Sequence record: NC_055781.1
Length of the DNA: 64,000 bases
Origin: Escherichia phage p000v
Direction: 5' to 3' (one strand)
Part shown: one piece after another, positions 5,317 to 64,000 of the stretch
Layout of the letters: every line of letters starts with the position of its first letter
Numbering within the stretch: position 1 is the stretch's first letter
The notes under the pieces: model-generated
What the model saw: only the letters and a program-made list of their open reading frames with translations
Databases searched by the model: none
Told to the model about the DNA's origin: nothing
Translations under genes and position numbers: made by a program

Positions 5317-5582
5317 AATTAACTCGAATCAGTATAACTGAAGAAAAGCTGGGCGAATTTTACGTCGACAACTTTATGAAAGTTACGTATTTTCCATTTG
5401 TTAAAGGTGTCGGTTTTTGGGAAACTCATGTATCTCAATTAAACGAAGGCGACTATAACGAAACACATGAGAACTTTTTAGATTTTCTTTATGGAGCTGG
5501 ATTAACCGAGCTTTATATTGATATACATGAGTTCAAACGTTTAATGGAAAAAGTATTCCAGGCGTATTGTTTGCTCCGATAG
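5313..5582 (+). CDS. hypothetical protein
   Basis: 89 aa, ATGA overlap with upstream gene. Confidence 0.4.
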   Translation: MKLTRISITEEKLGEFYVDNFMKVTYFPFVKGVGFWETHVSQLNEGDYNETHENFLDFLYGAGLTELYIDIHEFKRLMEKVFQAYCLLR

Positions 5583-7130: not shown

Positions 7131-7153
7131 GAACTCTTCGGAGTTCCTTTTTT
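7129..7153 (+). terminator. intrinsic terminator (AGGAACTC-ttcg-GAGTTCCT then TTTTT)
   Basis: 8-bp stem, UUCG tetraloop, T-run. Confidence 0.6.
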
Positions 7154-7176
7154 GCTTTATAAACGGATGATAGAAT
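7153..7176 (+). promoter_or_regulatory. MotA-dependent middle promoter upstream of gene 47
   Basis: TGCTTTA MotA box, 11-nt spacer, TAGAAT -10; 24 nt before the ATG at 7200. Confidence 0.55.
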
Positions 7177-11790: not shown

Positions 11791-11815
11791 AGCTTTACGT
11801 TTAATGTAGTACGAT
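11791..11815 (+). promoter_or_regulatory. middle-promoter-like element upstream of gene 44
   Basis: AGCTTTA box, 12-nt spacer, TACGAT. Confidence 0.35.
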
Positions 11816-11860: not shown

Positions 11861-12823
11861 ATGATTACTATCAATTCCAAAGAACACATTCTAGAACAGA
11901 AATATCGTCCTTCTTCCATTGACGAATGTATTCTGCCTGCGTATGACCATGAAACATTCAAGTCTTTAGTATCTAAAGGAAAACTTCCTCATATTATTTT
12001 GCACTCTCCTTCTCCTGGTACAGGTAAAACAACCGTAGCAAAAGCATTATGTAATGATATCAATGCCGAAATGATGTTCGTCAACGGTTCTGATTGTAAG
12101 ATTGATTTTGTGCGTGGTCCGTTAACTGCATTCGCTCGTTCAGTCTCAATGGAAGGCAAGCCTAAAGTTATTGTTATTGATGAATTCGACCGTAGTGGCC
12201 TCGCCGAATCACAACGCCATCTTCGTACGTTTATGGAAGAATTCTCTAGTAACTGCTCTATTGTTATTACTGCTAACAACATCGATGGAATTATTGAACC
12301 ATTACGTAGCCGTTGTCGAGTTATCGAATTCGGTCGTCCAACCGAAGAAGATAAAATCTCGATGATGAAGAAAATGATTCATCGTATGGTTGAAATCTGT
12401 AAGAACGAAAATATCGAAATCGCTGATATGAAAGTTGTTGCAGCTCTTGTTAAAAAGAACTTCCCAGACTTTCGTCGTACAATTGGACAATTAGACCAGT
12501 ACTCGTCTAAAGGTGTTCTTGATGCGGGTATTCTGTCTATCGTAACTAATGACCGTGGCACAGTCTCTGATGTTATCGAAGCAATGAAGAACAAAGATAT
12601 AAAACAGCTTCGTGCATTAGCTCCAAAATATGCTGCAGATTATTCATGGTTCATCGATAAATTAGTTTCAGAATGTTATGACCAAGTTGCACCTGGTAAA
12701 AGTATTATTTCGCTTTACGAAATTGCAGGCGAAAATAATAAGTTTCATGGATTAGCAAGTAATATTGAATTACATGTTATGTATATGCTTCTTCAACTGA
12801 CCTGCGAACTGACTTGGAAATAA
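11861..12823 (+). CDS. 44: clamp loader large subunit gp44 (AAA+)
   Basis: 320 aa; Walker [11 protein letters not shown], Walker B VIVIDEFD. Confidence 0.9.
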
Positions 12824-13783: not shown

Positions 13784-13840
13784 GGAGTATAATAAGTTCA
13801 TCAACAAACAAAAGACAATAACTCGTCTAAAGGAAATTAA

Positions 13841-16592: not shown

Positions 16593-17228
16593 ATGAAAAC
16601 TACACCAATCACTATCGCTATTGACGCAATCGTAAAACAAGCTTCATCTCTTGCCACTATGGCTAAAGTAATTAGTCAAAACTCTGCCCGATATAATGCT
16701 ATTCTTGAAACTCTTCGTCGCCCTGGACTGAGTAATTATGAAAGCCGAGTAATTATTACAGGTGTTGGTAAGAACGCTAATATCGCAACTAAAGCTTCCG
16801 AGACTTTTGCTTCACTAGGTATTCCTAGCATGTATTTGAACACCGGGCATTATTCTCATGGCGACGCAGGATTTATTGCACCTAATGATGTATTAGTTCA
16901 CATCAGTCGTTCTGGTAAGACTGAAGAAATGATAGGTGTTGCTAAACATCTTCGTATGATTCGTCCTCAGGTTAAACAGATTCTGTTACATTGTAACCCT
17001 GACATTCCGCAAGAATACGAAGCTCTTTTTGATTATACGTTCTGTACAGGCATCGCGGTAGAGGTTGATGAGAATTCTCTGGCTCCGACCATGTCCACTA
17101 CATTGTTGTTAGCGCTTATCGATACGTTTGCTATCAACCTTTCGTCTGAACGTGGATTTACCTCTAATGACTTCCTTAAGTTCCACCCTGGTGGTGCACT
17201 AGGTGCCATGTTACGAGGCGAACAATGA
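16593..17228 (+). CDS. SIS-domain sugar-phosphate isomerase, arabinose-5-phosphate isomerase-like (KdsD/GutQ N-domain type)
   Basis: 211 aa; VIITGVGKNANIA, HISRSGKTEE and C-terminal HPGGALG motifs typical of A5P isomerases; no CBS domains. Confidence 0.75.
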   Translation: MKTTPITIAIDAIVKQASSLATMAKVISQNSARYNAILETLRRPGLSNYESRVIITGVGKNANIATKASETFASLGIPSMYLNTGHYSHGDAGFIAPNDVLVHISRSGKTEEMIGVAKHLRMIRPQVKQILLHCNPDIPQEYEALFDYTFCTGIAVEVDENSLAPTMSTTLLLALIDTFAINLSSERGFTSNDFLKFHPGGALGAMLRGEQ

Positions 17229-17368
17229 AAGCAATAACAATAGGACTTTTACTATTGATGCTTGTCATGACTATCTACTGGAGCTTAACGGCTCCAGTAA
17301 TGATTCCGACTCTTATAATCGGATGGATTATGATTGGACTACAAGCAAAGTATGAATGCTTTAACTAG
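17225..17368 (+). CDS. small two-helix membrane peptide (47 aa)
   Basis: ATGA overlap with isomerase stop; MKAITIGLLLLMLVMTIYWSLTAPVMIPTLIIGWIMIGL; below ORF-track cutoff. Confidence 0.35.
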   Translation: MKAITIGLLLLMLVMTIYWSLTAPVMIPTLIIGWIMIGLQAKYECFN

Positions 17369-17381
17369 AATAGTGTACAAT
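17357..17381 (+). promoter_or_regulatory. MotA-dependent middle promoter upstream of the nucleotidyltransferase-kinase gene
   Basis: TGCTTTA box, 12-nt spacer, TACAAT -10; 28 nt before the ATG at 17410. Confidence 0.5.
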
Positions 17382-17409
17382 ACACCTACTTACCAATGAG
17401 GACTTCAAC

Positions 17410-19095
17410 ATGAAAAAAGCTGTTATTCTTGGTGCTGGACTGGCAACTCGTTTGTATCCAATAACGCACCATATTCCTAAGGTGCTTGTTAACTATAAAC
17501 AAGACACTATTCTGAGCAATTTGTATACAATTTATTCTGACCTTGGCGCAGATGAAATTATTGTAGTAGTTCATTCAAAATTTGCTGAAACTGTTCGAGC
17601 TTATTGCGAGCAAGAAGGGTTCAATGTGACTATTCGTACAGTTGATGAAGCGTATGGTTCTGCTTATGCTCTTGCTAAATTATACAAAGATTTAGATGGC
17701 CATAACGTAATTGTTAACTGGTGTGATATTATTCCTGACTTTGGTTCATGGTCTTGGAATGTTAACGCAATCTATGTTAAGGGTGATGAATGTCGATATA
17801 ATTTCGATGGTGAAAATATCACTAACGTAGGTTCAACAGGTGGTAATGTTGTAGGAATTTATCAGTTCAAAGACTGGGAATTCTACATGGGTTCTACTGA
17901 TGAGGAAATTCACGAATACTGCAAAGGTCGTGATTTCGTAGAATTCCTTTACGGCAGTGCATTCAATAAATCAGAGCTTATGAATCTAATTGATTTAGGT
18001 GATATGCCTAAACTTGAAAAGGCTCATGAAGTTCGTGAACTGAATCGTAGTTTTAATGCAGTTGAAATTGGCGAAGAAACTGTAACTAAATTCGCGTTAA
18101 CCGAACAAGGTCGAGCTCTTCAAAAAGATGAGATTTCATGGTATTTGAAAGTGAAATCAGATTCAGTTCCTCAGTTAGTTTCGGTAAATGAAAATAATTT
18201 TGAAATGGAACGTATTAAAGGTAAGCCGGCATTTGAATATATTAAATCCAAATCAAGTCTTGCTCGTCCACAAATTGTTGATGCAATTTTAGATGCACTG
18301 AAATTCAGCACGGACACTTATTTTGTAAGTCCTGAAACTGTTCGCCGTGATTTCACTAAAGAGTTCTATACGAAAGTTATTGATCGTTGTGAAAGCATTC
18401 AGCCATTGATTGATTCATTTGGTAAAATCACACGTGTGAACTACACTAAGATTGGACGTCTGAAGCCAATGTTGAAACAAGCTTTAGAACATCTTATTCG
18501 TTATCATAACCGTTCTCAGGGACAGTACTCTGTTATTCATGGTGACCCGAACTTCAGTAATACTATGATTACCGATAACGGCGAAGTCAAGTTTATCGAC
18601 CCTCGTGGATATTTTGGTGAAACCAAGATTTACGGGCCAAAATTGTATGATGAAGCTAAAGTGCTTTATGCTGTTTCAGGTTATGATGAATTCAATGCTA
18701 ATCCGACCTGGGGTCAGTTTACTATTGATGAAACAACTTGTAATGTGACTATTAACATCAATCCATTAGTTTACAAATATGGAAAGATGAGTTCGTTTAA
18801 CGAGTATCATCATTTGGCAGTAGCAATTATCTGGATTGCATTAGGTGGTTATTTCAAGAATAATCCACTTAAAGCGGTTGCCGCATATTATAAAGGTATG
18901 GAACTTCTGACTAAGCAATTACGTAACATGGGCCGTGTACTTCAAGACGGCTCTATTAGTTATGACGTAGCAGAACCTGTAACGGCTACTCTGATTACAA
19001 AAAATCCTGGTAAATGGGTACTAACTGATAAAGAAACTGGTGTTTCCTATCGTCCAATCGGCGGCGATATCACTCATCAATGGGAACGAATCTAA
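17410..19095 (+). CDS. bifunctional sugar-1-phosphate nucleotidyltransferase (N-terminal) / sugar kinase of APH-choline-kinase type (C-terminal)
   Basis: 561 aa; N-terminal KKAVILGAGLATRLYPIT (G-x-G-T-R-L-x-P-x-T nucleotidyltransferase signature); C-terminal HGDPNFSNTMI...IDPRG catalytic-loop-like motifs. Confidence 0.7.
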   Translation: MKKAVILGAGLATRLYPITHHIPKVLVNYKQDTILSNLYTIYSDLGADEIIVVVHSKFAETVRAYCEQEGFNVTIRTVDEAYGSAYALAKLYKDLDGHNVIVNWCDIIPDFGSWSWNVNAIYVKGDECRYNFDGENITNVGSTGGNVVGIYQFKDWEFYMGSTDEEIHEYCKGRDFVEFLYGSAFNKSELMNLIDLGDMPKLEKAHEVRELNRSFNAVEIGEETVTKFALTEQGRALQKDEISWYLKVKSDSVPQLVSVNENNFEMERIKGKPAFEYIKSKSSLARPQIVDAILDALKFSTDTYFVSPETVRRDFTKEFYTKVIDRCESIQPLIDSFGKITRVNYTKIGRLKPMLKQALEHLIRYHNRSQGQYSVIHGDPNFSNTMITDNGEVKFIDPRGYFGETKIYGPKLYDEAKVLYAVSGYDEFNANPTWGQFTIDETTCNVTININPLVYKYGKMSSFNEYHHLAVAIIWIALGGYFKNNPLKAVAAYYKGMELLTKQLRNMGRVLQDGSISYDVAEPVTATLITKNPGKWVLTDKETGVSYRPIGGDITHQWERI

Positions 19096-19481
19096 TGCAC
19101 CGTGTAGAAAACATGCTTAATCTTTGTTTTGATGTCGATGATTGTATAACAGAGTGGAATAACAATCGTGATTACGTGAACTTCAAACCAGACGTCGAAA
19201 TGGTGTCTGCCATTAATGCCCTGTATGATGCAGGGCATACCATAACGCTTTACACTGCCCGTGGTATGAAGTCGGTAGGTCCTGGTCGTATAGCAATTGA
19301 CATTCTCCCAAGTCTGATTCAGAACTTGGAAAACATTGGTTTGAAGTACCATAATTTGCTAACACATAAACCAGTATATGATTGGATTATCGACGACAAA
19401 GCTATGCGTCCTGACGAATTCAAAGCTCTTATGAATAAAGGCGAATTCGAAACATTTAAATCATATAAACCAAATCTATAA
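19095..19481 (+). CDS. small HAD-like phosphatase (putative)
   Basis: about 129 aa from ATG overlapping upstream stop (TAATG); FDVDDCIT resembles HAD motif I, WIIDDK resembles motif IV; capless. Confidence 0.45.
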   Translation: MHRVENMLNLCFDVDDCITEWNNNRDYVNFKPDVEMVSAINALYDAGHTITLYTARGMKSVGPGRIAIDILPSLIQNLENIGLKYHNLLTHKPVYDWIIDDKAMRPDEFKALMNKGEFETFKSYKPNL

Positions 19482-20699: not shown

Positions 20700-20935
20700 T
20701 TTCTAGAAAAAGTTTTAATTATAAACTTAACGAAGAGATTTTGACTATGAAACTGAACACTAACGAACAAATTCTTAAAAAGGCCCTTATGGGCCTGTTT
20801 GAAACCAAAGCGGCTAAAGTGATTAAAGAACCTGTTCAATTGGAATACTACGCTGATGCATTTCTTCATAGTGTTCTTGGAAGTATCGATGCTGAAGCTT
20901 TACGTTATATCAACATTGTCAAGAAATTCAAATAA
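20696..20935 (+). CDS. hypothetical protein
   Basis: 79 aa; ATGA overlap with upstream gene; not hydrophobic, so not Imm-like. Confidence 0.4.
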   Translation: MISRKSFNYKLNEEILTMKLNTNEQILKKALMGLFETKAAKVIKEPVQLEYYADAFLHSVLGSIDAEALRYINIVKKFK

Positions 20936-20958
20936 GCTTTACGAATTGAGTATATAAT
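20935..20958 (+). promoter_or_regulatory. middle-promoter-like element upstream of gene 42
   Basis: AGCTTTA box, 11-nt spacer, TATAAT; 20 nt before the ATG at 20978. Confidence 0.4.
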
Positions 20959-20977: not shown

Positions 20978-21694
20978 ATGGGAAAACATAACACAATGAA
21001 ATATATCAAAGCCGCAGATTTTCAAACCGCATTTAAAGCAGTCAATCGTGAAATTTTAGAAAACCCGGAATTCGTAACTGATTCTCGTATTGGACGTTGT
21101 AATGAAATTGGGTCTATGACAGTAGTTGTTGACACTCCATCATCATTCAAAATGACCGACCCACGTATTAACCGCATCTCTTATGAATATGCCGAAGACT
21201 TCTGGAAGTTTATGATTTCTGGTGGTACCAACGCAGAAGAAGCGTTTAAGGCATATCCTAATGTCGCTAAATTTATTTCTAAACCAAAATCAGATGTTTT
21301 GCCGGCGAACTTCAACACTTTCTATGGTCCTCGCATTGCGGCCCAATTACCAACTCTTCTAAAAGAACTTAAAGAGAAGCCTAACTCCCGAAGAGTTGTG
21401 TTCCAAATTCTAGAAAGTTCTGATCAGGCTTTGCTTGATTCGGACGAAACACTTGAATATCCATGTACTGACTCAGTAACTTATTATATTCGTGATGGTA
21501 AGCTTTATACCCACTGTCATATGCGTTCTCAGAACTGTGCTGTTGTTATGCAGTTGGATTTTTATCTCCAAGGAAAATTACTTCATTATATCGCTAACGA
21601 ATGCGGTGTAGAAGTTGGTGATTATACTCATACCATGGTAAGTGCCCATGTGTTTGAACGTGATTTTGATTATGTTAAAGGATTCCTTGACTAA
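20978..21694 (+). CDS. 42: dCMP hydroxymethylase gp42 (thymidylate-synthase fold)
   Basis: 238 aa, close to T4 gp42 length; assigned by position after gene 43 and size; no catalytic motif checked by eye. Confidence 0.85.
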   Translation: MGKHNTMKYIKAADFQTAFKAVNREILENPEFVTDSRIGRCNEIGSMTVVVDTPSSFKMTDPRINRISYEYAEDFWKFMISGGTNAEEAFKAYPNVAKFISKPKSDVLPANFNTFYGPRIAAQLPTLLKELKEKPNSRRVVFQILESSDQALLDSDETLEYPCTDSVTYYIRDGKLYTHCHMRSQNCAVVMQLDFYLQGKLLHYIANECGVEVGDYTHTMVSAHVFERDFDYVKGFLD

Positions 21695-22593
21695 TGGCTA
21701 TTTTCCGCGTACCAATCTTGAGTATGCGGTCTTATGAAACTGGACAGTATGCTATCCTTAAGGATGGCAACTTCCAACTTCATTTGCACCGTGCTAATCC
21801 GGGTGATGTGATTACATATCCACGTAATGCATCTGATATTAAAGAATGCGAACGTCTTTTCCCAGAATTTAAGTTTGTTCCATTATGGTATAAAGATAAC
21901 GCGTATAACACTCGTAAATATTTCTGGACTGAAAATGAATTTGTGGTTGATTCATTAATTGATTATTATGATTGTGATTTTCTAATCACAGATATCACTG
22001 GTTATGGTGGCGCTTTTGATGTGGAATTCAATTTCAATATCACTGCAGACCCTAATAAACCACGTTTTTATATTGATGAATTCTTAAAAACCGACATGTT
22101 GTCTGTTAATCGTTCACTTCAAACTACTGTGTTGAATGAACGTCAAAAAGAAGTGCTGGTTAACGCAGGTGCAGATGGTAATAAGATTATCGTAACGCAG
22201 AAAGTTATACGTCCTTCCATCATGCAGCGTCTTGTAGGTGATTTGGCTCCTATTCATCTAGATGGTATTTTTCATCCATTTCGAATTAGTGACCCATGTT
22301 ATCGTTTTGAACAAGTGGTTGAATGTGCAATTCAATTAGGTCAACCGCTTTATATAACCGATCCAAATAATAGCTTCGACAGAAATAAGTATCCTGAAGA
22401 AGCGCTGATTCGAATTTTTAAACCAACTAAAACTGAGTACTATCAAATTCTTAAAGGACGTCCGAAAATTCAATATTTCGAAAATCCTGAAGAAGTATTC
22501 CATCCAGGTCTTGGTGAGTTCATCTACTTTAATGCTTTAATTTCTTCGCCGTATAATATACCTAAATACGAAGATGTCGTAATCGAGGAATAA
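21694..22593 (+). CDS. hypothetical protein occupying the T4 beta-glucosyltransferase slot
   Basis: 299 aa; TAATG overlap with gene 42 stop; no resemblance to T4 beta-gt seen by eye. Confidence 0.45.
   Translation: MAIFRVPILSMRSYETGQYAILKDGNFQLHLHRANPGDVITYPRNASDIKECERLFPEFKFVPLWYKDNAYNTRKYFWTENEFVVDSLIDYYDCDFLITDITGYGGAFDVEFNFNITADPNKPRFYIDEFLKTDMLSVNRSLQTTVLNERQKEVLVNAGADGNKIIVTQKVIRPSIMQRLVGDLAPIHLDGIFHPFRISDPCYRFEQVVECAIQLGQPLYITDPNNSFDRNKYPEEALIRIFKPTKTEYYQILKGRPKIQYFENPEEVFHPGLGEFIYFNALISSPYNIPKYEDVVIEE
22533..22557 (+). promoter_or_regulatory. MotA-dependent middle promoter inside the 3' end of the 299-aa gene
   Basis: TGCTTTA box, 12-nt spacer, perfect TATAAT; 38 nt before the ATG at 22595. 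Confidence 0.5.
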
Positions 22594-22594
22594 A

Positions 22595-23143
22595 ATGGCT
22601 AAAATTATTTTAGTAGATGGCCCGGATAATGCCGGTAAAACAACTTTCATTAATGACATAATGGAAATTAGTGAAAGATATGTAAAGATTGATTTCCCTA
22701 AACGAACAGTTGATGGACGTTTCGATGTTAAGTCTCGAAATGAAGTTGGCTGTTTCGAAACGATGTTGAATTATTTAGACCCTACTAAGATTTATCTGTT
22801 AGACCGTGGATATATTAGTAACTGGGTTTATGGACGTATTCGACAAGATGCGGACTCGATTCTTGACGTTTATGAACAGGACTATGTTCGTCTTTGCCAA
22901 AACCATGATGTGTTCACAATTATTTTAACACGTAACGAAATGACTGAAAGTTTTGAAGACGACCTTATTACTTTGTCTTCATTCGGTTTTAATACAGTCA
23001 TTTCACATTTTGAAGAGTTTGCAATTCATAACAAAATCCAAACATATCAATTACTTAATCATGATGGTGCTAACAAAGTTATAGGATTTAATGCAAGCGA
23101 ACGTAATGGTTTGATTACAGAAATCATCAAATGGGCTCGTTAA
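22595..23143 (+). CDS. P-loop nucleotide/nucleoside kinase-like protein (thymidylate-kinase-like fold)
   Basis: 182 aa; Walker A VDGPDNAGKTT and DR motif LLDRGYISNWVYG. Confidence 0.55.
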   Translation: MAKIILVDGPDNAGKTTFINDIMEISERYVKIDFPKRTVDGRFDVKSRNEVGCFETMLNYLDPTKIYLLDRGYISNWVYGRIRQDADSILDVYEQDYVRLCQNHDVFTIILTRNEMTESFEDDLITLSSFGFNTVISHFEEFAIHNKIQTYQLLNHDGANKVIGFNASERNGLITEIIKWAR

Positions 23144-23164: not shown

Positions 23165-23189
23165 TGCTGTATAACCCTTAGTATATAAT
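23165..23189 (+). promoter_or_regulatory. middle-promoter-like element upstream of uvsX
   Basis: TGCTGTA box (one mismatch), 12-nt spacer, TATAAT. Confidence 0.4.
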
Positions 23190-26207: not shown

Positions 26208-26226
26208 GGAGACTTCGGTCTCCTTT
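26208..26226 (+). terminator. intrinsic terminator (GGAGAC-ttcg-GTCTCC then TTT)
   Basis: UUCG tetraloop hairpin right after the gene 41 stop. Confidence 0.55.
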
Positions 26227-26230
26227 CGGG

Positions 26231-26260
26231 GTTTACATCTTCCTCTAGGCATGATATGAT
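26231..26260 (+). promoter_or_regulatory. T4-type early promoter (GTTTAC -18- TATGAT)
   Basis: consensus-like -35 and -10 upstream of ORF 26290. Confidence 0.45.
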
Positions 26261-26289
26261 GTACTTACACTAACCAAGAGGAAAACATT

Positions 26290-26664
26290 ATGAATATGTC
26301 TCAAGCAATTTTTACTGCAATCACCGAAAACACAACTGTTGAAGTAGTTTCTCCGCTGGCAACCTACGTTATTCTTGCTCCTAAATCTATTGTATCTCGT
26401 ATGGAAAACATGGGCAAACGTATCGTACAAATCGTTGGAGCCGGAAATCAAAAACTTGATTATCTGCGAACCATCAAAGCTTATGAACATTTCCAACTCG
26501 AAAAAGGTTCTCCCATCCAGGTAGAACTCGTAAATGGTGATATCGTTCGAGCAATGTTCCATCATTTCTATGCATTGAATGACCCATCTAAAGCGGTTCG
26601 TTTAATTGCATACGACGCAAACCAAAACGAAATCAACGCAGATATATCTAAATTACGTTTTTAA
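26290..26664 (+). CDS. hypothetical protein
   Basis: 124-aa ORF. Confidence 0.4.
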   Translation: MNMSQAIFTAITENTTVEVVSPLATYVILAPKSIVSRMENMGKRIVQIVGAGNQKLDYLRTIKAYEHFQLEKGSPIQVELVNGDIVRAMFHHFYALNDPSKAVRLIAYDANQNEINADISKLRF

Positions 26665-33514: not shown

Positions 33515-34123
33515 ATGTTTATGCCGTATAATGAATGTGAAATTGAAGAAATGGTTCGTCGTGCTCAAAACCCCGAATATCAAGATGTATTGCAGTACGA
33601 AATTGATAGTCAATTCAGCGACATTGAACAAAGTGTACTGTGGCAGTGTATGGAAAACAAGCCTGATAGCATCCAACAGGAGTTAAGTTCAATCGTTCGT
33701 AGAAATTGGACGTCTTCTGTTCCTGAGACAATGTATCGTGGAATCTCTAAGAAAACTATGGCCACACTCGATGATAAAGGCGTTGGTAGTATTATTAAAT
33801 TTGACAGAGTAATGAGCTTTAGCCCGGTGTTTGGTGTAGCACGTAACTTTGCTTCGTATAATTTTTACGGAACATTTAATATGTTCTGCATCAAAGATGC
33901 ACCATTTGCTTTCAACTTCCGTGAACATATGCTTAACATGATTCTGGCTGCGCCATCTTGTGAGTTCAATGGAGCTTTCCCTGAAGCGACAAGACGGTCT
34001 AATGCTAGACTTATATCTGACGAATGTGAATTTATGCTCCCTATAGGGACTACACTGCGTGTAGATTCTATTATTCAAGATGGAAGTTATACAATCTGGA
34101 ATCTGTCTATTGTCGGTTACTGA
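33515..34123 (+). CDS. modA: ADP-ribosyltransferase, ModA/ModB-like
   Basis: 202 aa; R-S-E pattern (YRGIS, FSPVFG, ECEFMLP); T4 mod position relative to dda. Confidence 0.55.
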   Translation: MFMPYNECEIEEMVRRAQNPEYQDVLQYEIDSQFSDIEQSVLWQCMENKPDSIQQELSSIVRRNWTSSVPETMYRGISKKTMATLDDKGVGSIIKFDRVMSFSPVFGVARNFASYNFYGTFNMFCIKDAPFAFNFREHMLNMILAAPSCEFNGAFPEATRRSNARLISDECEFMLPIGTTLRVDSIIQDGSYTIWNLSIVGY

Positions 34124-34197
34124 CTGGATTGGAATAACCGGATGGAACTCAGAACCATTATAACACATAAAAAATTAAAGCATTTTATGAAAAAAGA

Positions 34198-34276: not shown

Positions 34277-35023
34277 ATGTTATCAAATAATAAAATTAAC
34301 AAAATCAATCGTCGTCTTGACCACACCAGAGCTTCTGCGAAGAGACGCTCTAAGGATTTTAACTTAGACTTTAATTACCTTAAAAACATTCTTGATCAAA
34401 AGGTCTGCGCTTACTCAGGTGAATCTTTCAATAACGCTGTTGAAGGTGAGAAATTATCCTTAGAACGTTTTAATAACGATATCGGCTACATTAAAGGTAA
34501 TGTTATCCCAGTTAAGAAAAAATATAACACGGCTCGTTCTGATTTAACATTAGAAGAACTTATTGAGAAACGTGATGCCATTGCAAGACGTATCGCTAAT
34601 CCTTCTGTCCGTAAAGTAGAGAAACTTAATCTCGACGAGAAGAAATGGGCCCAAATCAAAAAGGTTTATGATACCATTTTAAAAATCCGAGCAAAACGTG
34701 AAAATCGTGTTAAGCATATGGCGAACATGATGAAAAATCAACCTTTATCTAACGAATCTAAACTTAGAATTGTTGCTTTGAAAGCACGCATTAACGGCTC
34801 ACATCAAGCGGAAGGACATGAACTTACTAAACTCAACGTTCTTCTTAAAGGCTCTGACTGGAAAACTAAAACTAAATTAACTGACGCTGAATCGCTTTTC
34901 GATACATATGATAAAGTTATCCAAGGTCTGCAACGTTTTGAAAAGATTGGTTTCATTGGTAAATTAAAATTGAAACGTGGCCTACCACTTAGCGCATCAT
35001 TATTCCAACTGATTAAAGGTTAA
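34277..35023 (+). CDS. srd: Srd-like basic protein (assigned by position)
   Basis: 248 aa, Lys/Arg-rich; between the mod-like gene and dda as in T4. Confidence 0.35.
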   Translation: MLSNNKINKINRRLDHTRASAKRRSKDFNLDFNYLKNILDQKVCAYSGESFNNAVEGEKLSLERFNNDIGYIKGNVIPVKKKYNTARSDLTLEELIEKRDAIARRIANPSVRKVEKLNLDEKKWAQIKKVYDTILKIRAKRENRVKHMANMMKNQPLSNESKLRIVALKARINGSHQAEGHELTKLNVLLKGSDWKTKTKLTDAESLFDTYDKVIQGLQRFEKIGFIGKLKLKRGLPLSASLFQLIKG

Positions 35024-52017: not shown

Positions 52018-52650
52018 ATGTCTAAAGTTACTTACATCATCAAAGCTTCTGAAAACGCTCTGAATGAAAAAACTGCTGCAATAATGGTTTATATCATTAA
52101 GAACAACTTCACCACTGCTGCCAATGTCCGTGAAGCTCTGGAAGCAGAATACAATGCATCAGTTGTTAACTCTAACATCGGTGTATTGATTAAGAAAGGT
52201 TTAGTCGAAAAATCAGGTGATGGACTTGTAGCAACAGGCGAAGCAATGGATATTATCCAAAAAGCCGCAGATCTATTTGCTCAAGAAAATGCTCCAGAAC
52301 TTCTTCAGAAACGTAACACTAGAAAAGCACGTGGAGTTACTCCTGAAATGCATGAATTAGCAAACTTTGTTTTTGAAAATATTAAAGATAAAGTTGAAGT
52401 TAAAGAAATTGGTGAAAACCGTAGTAACTTAGAAGTTCGATTTGCAAAACGAGTTCTAGGTATTCGTCAGATCGAAATTCGTCGAGATGGCGCTCTTAGA
52501 ATCTTTGCATACAACATGTCAGAAACTGAATCAAAGCTGTTTACTTCTCTTGAAAATGATGTTAAGATTAAGATCGGTGGTAAATATACTTACATTGACT
52601 TCCCTAATGTGTCCAAAGAAATCATTACCCTTGTAACTAACGTACTGTGA
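52018..52650 (+). CDS. motA: middle-transcription activator MotA
   Basis: 210 aa (T4 MotA is 211); N-terminus MSKVTYIIKAS and SNIGVLIKKGLVEKSGDGL match T4 MotA as recalled. Confidence 0.8.
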   Translation: MSKVTYIIKASENALNEKTAAIMVYIIKNNFTTAANVREALEAEYNASVVNSNIGVLIKKGLVEKSGDGLVATGEAMDIIQKAADLFAQENAPELLQKRNTRKARGVTPEMHELANFVFENIKDKVEVKEIGENRSNLEVRFAKRVLGIRQIEIRRDGALRIFAYNMSETESKLFTSLENDVKIKIGGKYTYIDFPNVSKEIITLVTNVL

Positions 52651-54511: not shown

Positions 54512-54784
54512 ATGAATAAAGACATTGAAATCGTACGCGAAATTATTACTATTGCTTCTATTTTGATTAAATTCTCTAGGGAAGATATTGTTGAAGACCG
54601 AGCAAGTTTCATCGGATTCTTGAATGAGATTGGAATTAAAAAAGATGGTCGGCAGCTAAATCAGAATTCGTTCAGAAAACTAATTACAAATTTAACTGCC
54701 GAAGAAAAGAAAACACTGATTAGTGAATTCAATGAAGGTTTTGAAAATATTTATCGTCATTTAGCGATGTATTCTAACAACTAA
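54512..54784 (+). CDS. asiA: anti-sigma70 factor AsiA
   Basis: 90 aa; MNKDIEIVREIITIASILIKFSREDIVE... matches T4 AsiA as recalled. Confidence 0.85.
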   Translation: MNKDIEIVREIITIASILIKFSREDIVEDRASFIGFLNEIGIKKDGRQLNQNSFRKLITNLTAEEKKTLISEFNEGFENIYRHLAMYSNN

Positions 54785-61006: not shown

Positions 61007-64000
61007 TTATTCAATCCACTCGAATTTAACAGATTTATTCACAGGGTCTGGAATAATGCGGACATTACCAATCCTTAAGAAATCCCTTATTGTCAAGTTT
61101 CCGATTGTTGCATTATCAGAAGGTAAAGCACCAATATCAGAAGGTTGAGGAGGGTTTCCGCCATCAAATACCTGAACAAAACTTGACCAAGAATTTTTAG
61201 TTTTCTGCCATGTACGAGTCCAACGGGTTGTACGTGCTTCTGGAGTTGTTGGATAAGTAATCCAATCTTGGTAAAGAGAATCAAGCGTATTACCAAACTG
61301 AGTCAATGTACCAGGAGATTTAACTTCTTCGCCACGTTCTAAGTATGGAAGCCCAGTCACTTCATTAGTTTTTTCAACCATTTTAAAATAACCCGGGAAC
61401 TGGTTATAAGTGGCTGAATCGTTAATATCGATTGACCAGAATCCTACAGTATCAGATGTCGGTGCGCGAGTGTATAAATCAGCAGTTTTAGAGCCCTGAG
61501 AACGAATTCTCGAGTTAACAGTTAAACCACCTGAATTTATAGTAGCACCTTTGGCAATGATTAAGCTTTCACCAATCGTTACTTGGCCAGATGCATTATT
61601 AATAGCTAAAGGACGTAATCCATTAAATCCGCCGGTCTGATCGCCTGATGCAGTGAGCATAAAATAGGTATTAACAGCGTCATTACGAATAAAGAATCCG
61701 TAATCACCACTAATTGCTCTGAAAGCATTTGCAGACTTACTAATGAATTCACCATTGGCTGTAACTGAACTATTAAACGTTGAGACACCTGTAACGTTCA
61801 GAACGCCACGAACGCTAGCGTTGACTGATTGCATCGTACCTGAAATATTGAACAGCACATTATTCGACGTATCTCTTTGAGAATAGAAATGAGAGCCGGT
61901 AGCATCAGAGAATTCTATAATCGTTGCACGAGTTACATCAGAACCTCCGCTGTACTTATTACCCCATACACGAACATACAATGCAGAATCAGCATTACTA
62001 CCAGAAGCAGGACCTTTCTCAAATGTAAATCGAGAAGAAGTCGTTCCAGTATTAGAAATAGTCAGTGTACTATTAGCAGATACTGAACCACCAAACGTAG
62101 CAGTACTAGTTGATACAAGAGGGGCACTCAGATTCGTTTGTTGGGTTAAGGTTAGTGAACCATTAACCGTCTGTGCAATGTCCCTACGAATGAACTGAGA
62201 TGAATCTAGGCCATCTAATAAATTACTATCTACGGCTTTAGCTTTCAATGGCAAATAGTTAGCAAGTACACGGTTTAATTCATATGGTGATACTGCATAG
62301 CTATTTTTTTCGTATGATTCTAAAGGTTGTGTTGAACCAACTGTATCATTACCAACAAATGTAATAGAACCGGACGAAGTTTTAACGAATCCGCGAATTG
62401 CTGTAGTAGCAGCCCATGTTGGTTCATTCTGGACAATCCATTTTAAATTCTTAGGAGATACAGCAGTATTAGCAGAAGTTCCTGTTACAGTTTCAGCCTG
62501 AGTAGCAACCTTAATTACGCCTTCAGACGTTTCAGTGGACTTAGTCCCTAAAAGCTTTTTAGGAGTAATAAGAACATCATCTAAAGTTCCTGCATTAGAT
62601 TCTGCCTGGGTCGCTACGCGGAGTGTACCACGTTGTGTTTCATTTGCTTTAGAAATATCAAGAGTATAATGGTTCCACAAGGTTCCTTCTTCAATAAGTC
62701 CGGAATCAGAATTAACACTGGTACGGTCAGAAGAATCAAAATGAGTTTTAATTTTCAGTGGAGTCGAGATACGAGTATCATCAGTTCCAGTATCAAATTC
62801 AACTTGCGTAGCAAGTTCGGCTATGCCGGATAATCCTTCCGTAGCTTTCCTATCATTTAACGTCTTAGGCGTTACTGCACGTGTATAATCAGTCCCAGCA
62901 TTAGTTTCTGCTTGCGTAGCAATTTCAATTAAACCAATACGTCCATCAGTAGAAGTTTTCTTATGTAGTGTTTCAGGAGTTACTACAGCGTGAGAATAAC
63001 CTGCTTGTGATTGACCAGCAATTACTTCACTATCAACAGCTAAAATTACTGCACCTTGTTGAGCATAAGTTGCTTTATATTGGTCAAGGGCTTTAGGAGA
63101 AATAGTTAAATTATTTACGGTTTTATTATAAACGTTAGTGCCTGCAGCCCCACGAGTTTCAGCAGGAGTAGCAGAAGTAGTTGATACATATTTAACTATA
63201 CCAGACAGTGTTTCAGAACCCTGACGTGCCTGTAATTTCTTAGGTGTAATAATCGTTGTGTCATCAAGACCAGCATCGGTTTCAACCTGAGTAGCAATTT
63301 CAGCAAGACCACGACGAGTTTCAGTTGCTGTACGCTCATTTAGTTTTTTAGGCGTAACAATAGTATCATCCACAAATGTTGCAGTGGAATTCTGGTTAAC
63401 TTGTGCTGTTGTAGCAATTTTAGCGATACCACGTCGAGCTTCAGTTGCTGTACGATTTGCCAATGTTTCAGGAGTAATAGCAACTTCTTTAGCCGGAGAA
63501 TTTTCAAAATCAACATTTGCCTGTGCCTGAGTTGCAAGAGCAATAACACCTACACGAGCTCTAGTTGTATCGGTTCCAGCATCGACACGTTCTACAGTTG
63601 GGACATTCTGTTGAACAACCCAATAACGTGTACCAGCAACGGTGTCTTCGATATACGCTAATTCTAATACAGGAACATATGAAGTAGTGCCATTGAATTC
63701 CAATTCAGTAACAGAGACCCATTGAGCATCAGGTGGATATTCAGAACGTTTAGGGAACTGAAGCAATGCAACAGAAGAAGCAATTGTATCACCTTCAGCA
63801 GCTTTAATTTTTACTGTTTGGCCTTTACGCATGTAGTTCATTGAAATTTTAACAGTGTCACCACTCAAAATTCCGCTAGGCAGCGTAAGATTAATAGTTC
63901 CGGCTGTAGCGTTATTTGTGCCAAAAATAAGAACTTCTTCATTTGGACGAATATTTGAATCCGCACGGATAATACGAAGACGCGATTTCTGGTCGCCTTC
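61007..64000 (-). CDS. 34: long tail fiber proximal subunit gp34, 5' end outside window
   Basis: at least 997 codons open to the window end (ORF-track start 63868 is an internal TTG); repeated motifs TPKKL and GTLRVATQ; C-terminus matches T4 gp34 as recalled. Confidence 0.9.
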   Translation of the reverse strand, partial: EGDQKSRLRIIRADSNIRPNEEVLIFGTNNATAGTINLTLPSGILSGDTVKISMNYMRKGQTVKIKAAEGDTIASSVALLQFPKRSEYPPDAQWVSVTELEFNGTTSYVPVLELAYIEDTVAGTRYWVVQQNVPTVERVDAGTDTTRARVGVIALATQAQANVDFENSPAKEVAITPETLANRTATEARRGIAKIATTAQVNQNSTATFVDDTIVTPKKLNERTATETRRGLAEIATQVETDAGLDDTTIITPKKLQARQGSETLSGIVKYVSTTSATPAETRGAAGTNVYNKTVNNLTISPKALDQYKATYAQQGAVILAVDSEVIAGQSQAGYSHAVVTPETLHKKTSTDGRIGLIEIATQAETNAGTDYTRAVTPKTLNDRKATEGLSGIAELATQVEFDTGTDDTRISTPLKIKTHFDSSDRTSVNSDSGLIEEGTLWNHYTLDISKANETQRGTLRVATQAESNAGTLDDVLITPKKLLGTKSTETSEGVIKVATQAETVTGTSANTAVSPKNLKWIVQNEPTWAATTAIRGFVKTSSGSITFVGNDTVGSTQPLESYEKNSYAVSPYELNRVLANYLPLKAKAVDSNLLDGLDSSQFIRRDIAQTVNGSLTLTQQTNLSAPLVSTSTATFGGSVSANSTLTISNTGTTSSRFTFEKGPASGSNADSALYVRVWGNKYSGGSDVTRATIIEFSDATGSHFYSQRDTSNNVLFNISGTMQSVNASVRGVLNVTGVSTFNSSVTANGEFISKSANAFRAISGDYGFFIRNDAVNTYFMLTASGDQTGGFNGLRPLAINNASGQVTIGESLIIAKGATINSGGLTVNSRIRSQGSKTADLYTRAPTSDTVGFWSIDINDSATYNQFPGYFKMVEKTNEVTGLPYLERGEEVKSPGTLTQFGNTLDSLYQDWITYPTTPEARTTRWTRTWQKTKNSWSSFVQVFDGGNPPQPSDIGALPSDNATIGNLTIRDFLRIGNVRIIPDPVNKSVKFEWIE

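Follow-up and report, generated by a model that had tools for sequence, protein, structure and literature searches.

The window, by which we mean the whole 64,000-nt stretch of Escherichia phage p000v analysed here (NC_055781.1), is from a Mosigvirus (RB69-like), the genus in which RB69 is classified. Over the 8 kb surrounding the two sites described below, identity is 98.8% with Escherichia phage FP43 and 97-99% with some 150 further RB69-like phages. Prereplicative genes occupy the + strand from position 1 to ~54.8 kb in T4 order, beginning with nrdD, nrdG, 55, 47, 46, rpbA, 45, 44, 62, regA, 43 and a modification island, continuing after the island with uvsX, 40, 41, 61, 56, modB, modA, srd, dda, dexA and 39, and ending with rIIA, rIIB, ndd, 52, motA and asiA, after which tail-fibre genes lie on the - strand. 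Judged by domains, order and annotation, all RB69 gp45-gp55-type members are present in the island between gene 43 and uvsX; the list of members used was arabinose-5-phosphate isomerase, nucleotidyltransferase-kinase fusion, HAD phosphatase, 5-hydroxy-dCMP synthase (thymidylate-synthase-like), glycosyltransferase and kinase. The island genes abut or overlap, and include the following:

16593-17228, + strand: arabinose-5-phosphate isomerase gene (SIS domain)
17410-19095, + strand: ntk, encoding a bifunctional protein with a sugar-1-phosphate nucleotidyltransferase (N-terminal) and a kinase (C-terminal); equals RB69 gp52:53, AfhE-like
19095-19481, + strand: HAD-type phosphatase gene (AfhF-like, RB69 gp51); TIGR01689, E = 1.6e-13, below the curated cut-off
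20978-21694, + strand: thymidylate-synthase homologue, the 5-hydroxy-dCMP synthase; product 99% identical to RB69 gp48 and 25% to T4 gp42
21694-22593, + strand: putative DNA arabinosyltransferase 1 gene (RB69 gp46:47); structure predictions in PMC13326640
22595-23143, + strand: P-loop (GPDNAGKT) kinase-like gene; equals RB69 gp45, 98% identity to RB69p045

The ntk product matches Pfam NTP_transferase at residues 3-99, with NCBIfam as a further line of evidence, and is 99.8% identical to its CAU_ECP01 homologue; the role of the AfhE-like protein type has been published (PMC13326640). The arabinosyltransferase 1 product had no match in Pfam or NCBIfam. Similarly, the 182-aa P-loop protein had no Pfam or NCBIfam match above cut-off; its Walker A segment GPDNAGKT alone resembles dTMP kinase (E = 0.008, below cut-off), and a sub-cut-off match confined to the P-loop does not confirm a kinase identity from sequence. 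A thymidylate-kinase-like fold of the RB69 gp45-type protein is reported in PMC13326640. The first-pass annotation of this DNA had suggested that NDP-sugar synthesis is timed with replication and hmC production, and the mention of hmC is wrong and outdated because RB69 gp48, the near-identical counterpart of the gene-42-like protein, makes 5-hydroxy-dCMP, the resulting base being arabinosylated 5-hydroxycytosine. RB69 gp48 was identified experimentally as a 5-hydroxy-dCMP synthase that takes its oxygen from O2, and RB69 DNA contains mono- and di-arabosylated 5-hydroxycytosine (PMC13326640).

The same annotation had placed a MotA box, a 12-nt spacer and a -10 element in front of ntk (17357-17381, site 1) and in front of the P-loop kinase-like gene (22533-22557, site 2), and both sets of elements are exact in the sequence:

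17357-17363, + strand: site 1 MotA box TGCTTTA, upstream of ntk, overlapping the last codons (C-F-N) of a 47-codon ORF
17364-17375, + strand: site 1 spacer, 12 nt, actagaatagtg, read from the sequence
17376-17381, + strand: site 1 -10 element TACAAT, 12 nt past the box
22533-22539, + strand: site 2 MotA box TGCTTTA, within the arabinosyltransferase gene at its 3' end, in codons AAT-GCT-TTA
22540-22551, + strand: site 2 spacer, 12 nt, atttcttcgccg, read from the sequence
22552-22557, + strand: site 2 -10 element TATAAT (codons Tyr-Asn), 12 nt past the box

T4 middle promoters are defined by (a/t)3TGCTTtA, 12 +/- 1 bp and TAtaaT, with the box centred near -30 (PMC2988021). Both sites have a consensus box, a spacer of exactly 12 nt and a TAnnnT -10 element, which are all the sequence features of the MotA/AsiA-dependent class, and the extended boxes read gaaTGCTTTA (17354-17363) and taaTGCTTTA (22530-22539). 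The match to a -35 element is at most 3/6 at both sites (16-18 bp spacing), there is no TGn extension, and neither site was among the matches of a sigma70-type promoter scan. At site 1 the -10 element ends 28 nt before the ntk ATG at 17410, with a GAGGA at 17398-17402; at site 2 it ends 37 nt before the kinase-like ATG at 22595, with a GAGGA at 22585-22589. The predicted transcript start of site 1 is placed at ~A17388 because T4 starts fall 7 nt past the -10 hexamer, and that of site 2 is predicted at ~A22564.

Genes for both regulators of this promoter class are present in the window:

52018-52650, + strand: motA (Pfam MotA_activ 2.4e-39, MotCF 2.2e-8)
54512-54784, + strand: asiA, co-activator and anti-sigma70 factor (Pfam AsiA 2.4e-32)

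MotA is 51% identical to T4 MotA overall, 70% in the N-terminal activation domain, 7/8 residues in the minor-groove linker and 30% in the C-terminal DNA-binding "double wing" domain. Because the DNA-binding domain is only 30% identical to that of T4, applying the T4 definition of the box is an assumption here, one that the enrichment described below supports, and from the sequence evidence MotA appears to read a GCTT-based box in this phage. AsiA is 73% identical to T4 AsiA, and R47, R55, K56 and N74, the DNA- and flap-contacting residues named in PMC6755090, are kept in the alignment with T4. Two of the sigma-contact residues of MotA differ from T4 (D30N, Q76M). The MotA of Dhakavirus IME08 is nearer to the window's MotA (70% overall) than that of T4 is. 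MotA identity across phages tracks overall phylogeny, so that this comparison does not separate phylogeny from modification type.

A strict pattern, TGCTTTA-N11-13-TANNNT, was searched over the whole window and gave 10 matches, compared with an expectation of 1.04 from 100 shuffles (sd 1.0, maximum 5). Four of the five distinct + strand matches in 1-54.8 kb end 23-38 nt before an annotated start (47, ntk, the kinase-like gene and 39), a placement that ~7% of matches would have by chance given 97 genes in 54.8 kb. For a graded score, 29 experimentally mapped T4 middle promoters were taken from the start sites in Table 1 of Hinton 2010, and the 25 that aligned cleanly were combined into a matrix covering the box, the spacer and the extended -10, with dinucleotide shuffles as the null. 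At >=12 bits the + (early-gene) strand has 27 sites against 3.6 +/- 1.8 expected, a 7.5-fold enrichment, and the - strand has 5, the chance level. Many of the + strand matches resemble, or share a gene with, T4 P47, P39, P56/69, P61, P46i2, P55.8, P55.8(2), PmobC, PrIIA, PrIIB2 and PuvsX. Because the sites are enriched on the + strand and many have T4 counterparts, the MotA regulon is evidently conserved. Sites 1 and 2 themselves score 12.5 and 12.3 bits, low within the range of the T4 training promoters (11.4-23.7), because their -17 to -13 region differs from that of T4. Since about one third of the + strand matches in the 12-14 bit bin are expected by chance, the score alone is not decisive for either site.

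Similar elements had also been claimed ahead of genes 47, 44, "42" and uvsX. All four are present; the box of gene 47 is TGCTTTA, and those of 44, "42" and uvsX each deviate by one base:

7153-7176, + strand: TGCTTTA-N11-TAGAAT upstream of gene 47, 20.8 bits; T4 P47, and RB69 Pm:40046 by a constant coordinate offset
11791-11815, + strand: AGCTTTA-N12-TACGAT upstream of gene 44, 14.8 bits, a weaker candidate
20935-20958, + strand: AGCTTTA-N11-TATAAT upstream of "42" (5-hydroxy-dCMP synthase), 16.4 bits; equals RB69 Pm:26264
23165-23189, + strand: TGCTGTA-N12-TATAAT upstream of uvsX, 18.1 bits; equals RB69 Pm:24034

The uvsX element is kept in relatives at 17-20 bits. The gene 44 element is absent both from the RB69 list of Nolan et al. 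and from the table of mapped T4 promoters. At gene 43, a hairpin and a TATAAT at 13788-13793 mirror T4 P43.

Conservation was assessed on the homologous island of eight other genera and on 26 viral contigs. Around site 1 it is not confined to Mosigvirus. The sequence is identical in RB69, where it lies inside Nolan's Pm:29842, and a GCTT-type box with equal spacing occurs at the same position in Winklervirus, Kanagawavirus, Tegunavirus, Serratia 4S and a Klebsiella phage group. In a six-genus alignment GTACAAT is invariant despite being non-coding, and from the upstream gene to the Shine-Dalgarno sequence no blocks but GCTT-A and GTACAAT are invariant; 12 nt separate the two, and the ATG follows 25-28 nt later in every genus that has them. 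Across the six genera this position scores 12.5-21.8 bits with the T4 matrix, the equivalents outside Mosigvirus reaching ~18-22. The box occurs in three different contexts, namely at the C-F-N end of a small ORF, at the end of the isomerase gene and in non-coding DNA after a hairpin, and for this reason coding constraint cannot explain its conservation. At the corresponding position in Marfavirus, Dhakavirus and Acinetobacter phages the -10 element is kept and the GCTT box is absent. Judged from these alignments, site 1 is a clear phylogenetic footprint and very probably a MotA-type middle promoter, a reading that is well supported.

The small ORF whose last codons overlap the site 1 box is a 47-codon hydrophobic ORF (17225-17368, + strand; RB69ORF054c-like) that overlaps the isomerase stop codon (ATGA). 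It is homologous to the "imm-42 intercistronic region" of T4 (~26222-26376, - strand), where an unannotated ORF of similar length likewise overlaps the imm stop and contains P42 in its 5' part. Site 1 lies at the 3' end of the small ORF, whereas P42 lies ~90 nt further upstream inside the homologous ORF, which rules out site 1 as a positional orthologue of T4 P42. In Winklervirus, Kanagawavirus, Tegunavirus and Serratia 4S (around 5455-5480 of the retrieved site-1-equivalent loci), the -10 element and the predicted start fall within an 8-bp inverted repeat, ATGGTACA-atgga-TGTACCAT; the window has only GTGTA-caa-TACAC. RNA structure at the -10 element of site 1 was rejected, as the consensus fold of six sequences was -0.03 kcal/mol with no compensatory pair or covariation.

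Site 2 lies entirely within coding sequence: it falls in the final 61 nt of the arabinosyltransferase gene and coincides with codons of the conserved peptide YFNALISSPYNIP (N-A-L ... Y-N). Its RB69 counterpart, inside Nolan's Pm:24665, has CGCTTTA, one synonymous base different. Outside this phage the box is found only as CGCTTTA in RB69 and Tegunavirus and as TGCTGTA in Marfavirus; it is lost or degraded in Winklervirus, Kanagawavirus and the Serratia and Acinetobacter relatives. The -10 element is kept: all six enterobacterial-phage genera examined, this one included, spell the Tyr-Asn pair TATAAT, as does RB69, whereas across the genes of this phage only 36% of such pairs have that spelling. 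On this sequence record site 2 has moderate support as a MotA-type middle promoter, which it more probably is than not, and its support is weaker than that of site 1.

A perfect TGCTTTA-N13-TATGAT (18.1 bits) also occurs inside ntk at 18662-18687 (+ strand), on the invariant protein motif KVLY..GYD. Roughly half of the relatives do not preserve its box at synonymous positions, and we rejected it as a third island promoter and regard it as a likely by-product of coding. Because this perfect match falls on a protein motif, motif matches can evidently be by-products of coding sequence, and the case is a caution for promoter calls made by motif alone.

The transcriptional context of the island was examined by scanning for other promoter classes. 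No T4-type early promoter was found on the + strand between 3977 and 26232, and the HMM list of Nolan et al. 2006 for RB69 has none between 20971 and 42465, corresponding to ~4.7-26.2 kb here (PMC1524935). This 21-kb block runs from gene 55 to gene 41 and includes the modification island; with no early promoter in ~4.7-26.2 kb, the MotA-type promoters are therefore the only local promoters of the island. Sigma70-type promoters in 13-25 kb were not enriched (34 found, 43.9 expected), and a sigma70 or early-type promoter inside the island was rejected, the lone candidate being a weak TTTAAA-N16-TATAAT at 19455. The late-promoter sequence TATAAATA was not found on the + strand in 16-24 kb. Read-through into the island from the gene 43 promoter is likely. 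A literature search for RB69 or Mosigvirus RNA-seq, primer extension, transcript starts and motA or asiA mutants found none.

The explanation that we favor, probable on the sequence record, is that the island is served by T4-type MotA middle promoters, and we infer initiation, MotA dependence and timing at sites 1 and 2 from it. One alternative is that read-through transcripts begun at the gene 43 promoter and further upstream account for essentially all island expression, with little or no contribution from the internal motifs. Such transcription would meet no convincing + strand terminator in the island, nor a convincing intrinsic one anywhere between gene 43 and uvsX, across genes that abut or overlap; T4 middle RNAs also come from extended upstream transcripts (PMC2988021); the isomerase gene, for which no MotA-type promoter of its own was found, presumably depends on transcription from the gene 43 promoter; and the T4-matrix scores at both sites are modest. 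What makes this account unlikely is chiefly site 1, where a box and a non-coding -10 element are held at a fixed distance across genera while their flanks diverge, so that a non-functional site is hard to accept. In addition, the nearest predicted early promoter is >12 kb upstream.

The matches could instead be products of chance or codon choice with no promoter role, at site 2 and possibly at site 1. This applies most readily to site 2, which is wholly coding, lies on a conserved peptide and loses its box where the amino acids change; the perfect motif at 18662 shows a protein motif giving rise to such a match, and ~3.6 matrix matches at >=12 bits are expected per strand. Against it stand the enrichment, which is seen on the early strand only, the placement of four of the five strict matches shortly before start codons, the use of TATAAT for Tyr-Asn in six of six genera and the conservation of site 1 in non-coding contexts, and we regard the idea as quite improbable. 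Ordinary sigma70 promoters, early and constitutive and working without MotA, are very improbable indeed: although both sites have good -10 hexamers, and T4 PuvsX is partly active with RNA polymerase alone (PMC6755090), both lack a -35 match and a TGn extension, neither resembles the early promoters of this phage (GTTTACA-N17-TGnTATAAT), and the encoded AsiA would inhibit -35-dependent use (PMC2988021).

If the island is served by MotA-type promoters, the phage would make AsiA and MotA early in infection. AsiA would remodel sigma70 region 4 so that the -35 element is no longer read, MotA would bind both sigma70 and the TGCTTTA box, whose centre is near -30, and sigma70 region 2 would read the -10 hexamer that follows the box after 12 bp. 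Transcription would then start near 17388 and 22564, ~7 nt past the hexamer. With a third promoter at 20935 and those of gene 43 and uvsX on either side, sites 1 and 2 would give the island its own prereplicative, MotA-timed units. The first may comprise the nucleotidyltransferase-kinase, the phosphatase and a U32-like gene, the second the 5-hydroxy-dCMP synthase and the arabinosyltransferase, and the third the kinase-like gene, and these promoters would act in addition to read-through from upstream.

The proposal of MotA-type middle promoters on the island thus stands as to its promoter elements, the presence of motA and asiA, the enrichment, the footprint at site 1 and the lack of early promoters; it holds less well at site 2, which is coding and partly conserved, and the idea had already been published for RB69. 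A motA orthologue and T4-like middle promoters were described in RB69 by Nolan et al. (2006, Virol J 3:30, PMC1524935), whose Additional file 4, an independent HMM scan, predicts Pm:29842, Pm:26264, Pm:24665 and Pm:24034. The RB69 sequence at those coordinates corresponds to the sites at 17357, 20935, 22533 and 23165 here, which the type Mosigvirus thus shares position for position: its site 1 has an identical sequence, its site 2 is one base off, and the boxes of Pm:26264 and Pm:24034 are the same as those of the "42" and uvsX sites. The window is from a different isolate, about 97-99% identical, and both sets are sequence predictions. The 2006 list is a coordinate table; it does not link the promoters to a DNA-modification pathway, the chemistry of which had yet to be worked out.

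In T4 the mapped middle promoters include those of modification genes (P42, P-alpha-gt) as well as PuvsX, P43 and P47 (Hinton 2010, PMC2988021, Table 1). The arrangement here is like that of T4 in having a box at -30, 12 +/- 1 bp and a sigma70 -10 element, in having the same activator and co-activator genes, and in having base-modification genes with middle promoters of their own inside the replication gene block. Unlike in T4, where the downstream genes serve hmC and glucosylation, those here serve NDP-arabinose and 5-hydroxy-dCMP; the T4 promoters are experimentally mapped and those of the window are predicted. The island has the same content and order as the RB69 gp45-gp55 arabinosyl-5-hydroxycytosine cluster (Thomas et al. 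2018, PMC6024577; Lee et al. 2026, PMC13326640), and the proteins compared with it are 98-99% identical. As neither of these modification papers mentions MotA or middle promoters, all that is new is the link from promoter to modification. The finding repeats a published RB69 prediction, follows the T4 paradigm and is already known, and current understanding is unchanged by it, since the promoter class, the regulators, the island and the sites (as predictions) are in the literature.

If the favored explanation is true, a phage that exchanged hmC and glucose for 5-hydroxycytosine and arabinose chemistry would have kept T4's regulatory solution. Sigma appropriation would turn on modification and replication genes together, with precursors and the sugar donor ready for DNA synthesis, and motA knock-downs would be expected to give under-modified DNA. 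The sites are a useful annotation for the study and engineering of RB69-like phages.

A more far-reaching and speculative idea, which we consider improbable, is that expression of the whole arabinosylation pathway is almost entirely MotA-dependent, that MotA is adapted to an arabinosylated box and that modification feeds back on the genes responsible for it. Near-total dependence is possible because the pathway sits in the 21-kb block without an early promoter. An adapted MotA would read box cytosines bearing (di)arabinosyl-5-hydroxy groups instead of glucosyl-hydroxymethyl groups, and the modification state of the promoters might then feed back on the modification genes, parental DNA being fully arabinosylated and newly replicated DNA not yet so. 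In T4 there is an analogous effect of modification at P46 and at GATT boxes.

Two further MotA-type elements lie outside the island. The top-scoring one of the window (24.2 bits) is a TGCTTTA-N13-TATAAT on the - strand at 34157-34182, between modA (33515-34123) and srd (34277-35023) and antisense into modA. An antisense or interfering transcript made from it at middle times could shut off modA and modB. At the same place T4 has a perfect TGCTTTA-N12-TATAAT on the + strand (~11865-11895), which is absent from Hinton's mapped T4 table, and near modA/srd Nolan's RB69 list has the + strand Pm:12081. The other element, TGCTTTA-N13-TATAAT at 62645-62670 (+ strand, 19.5 bits), is antisense to the long-tail-fibre gene 34 homologue, which lies on the - strand; T4 has a mapped middle promoter, P34i, inside gene 34, a possible counterpart by location.
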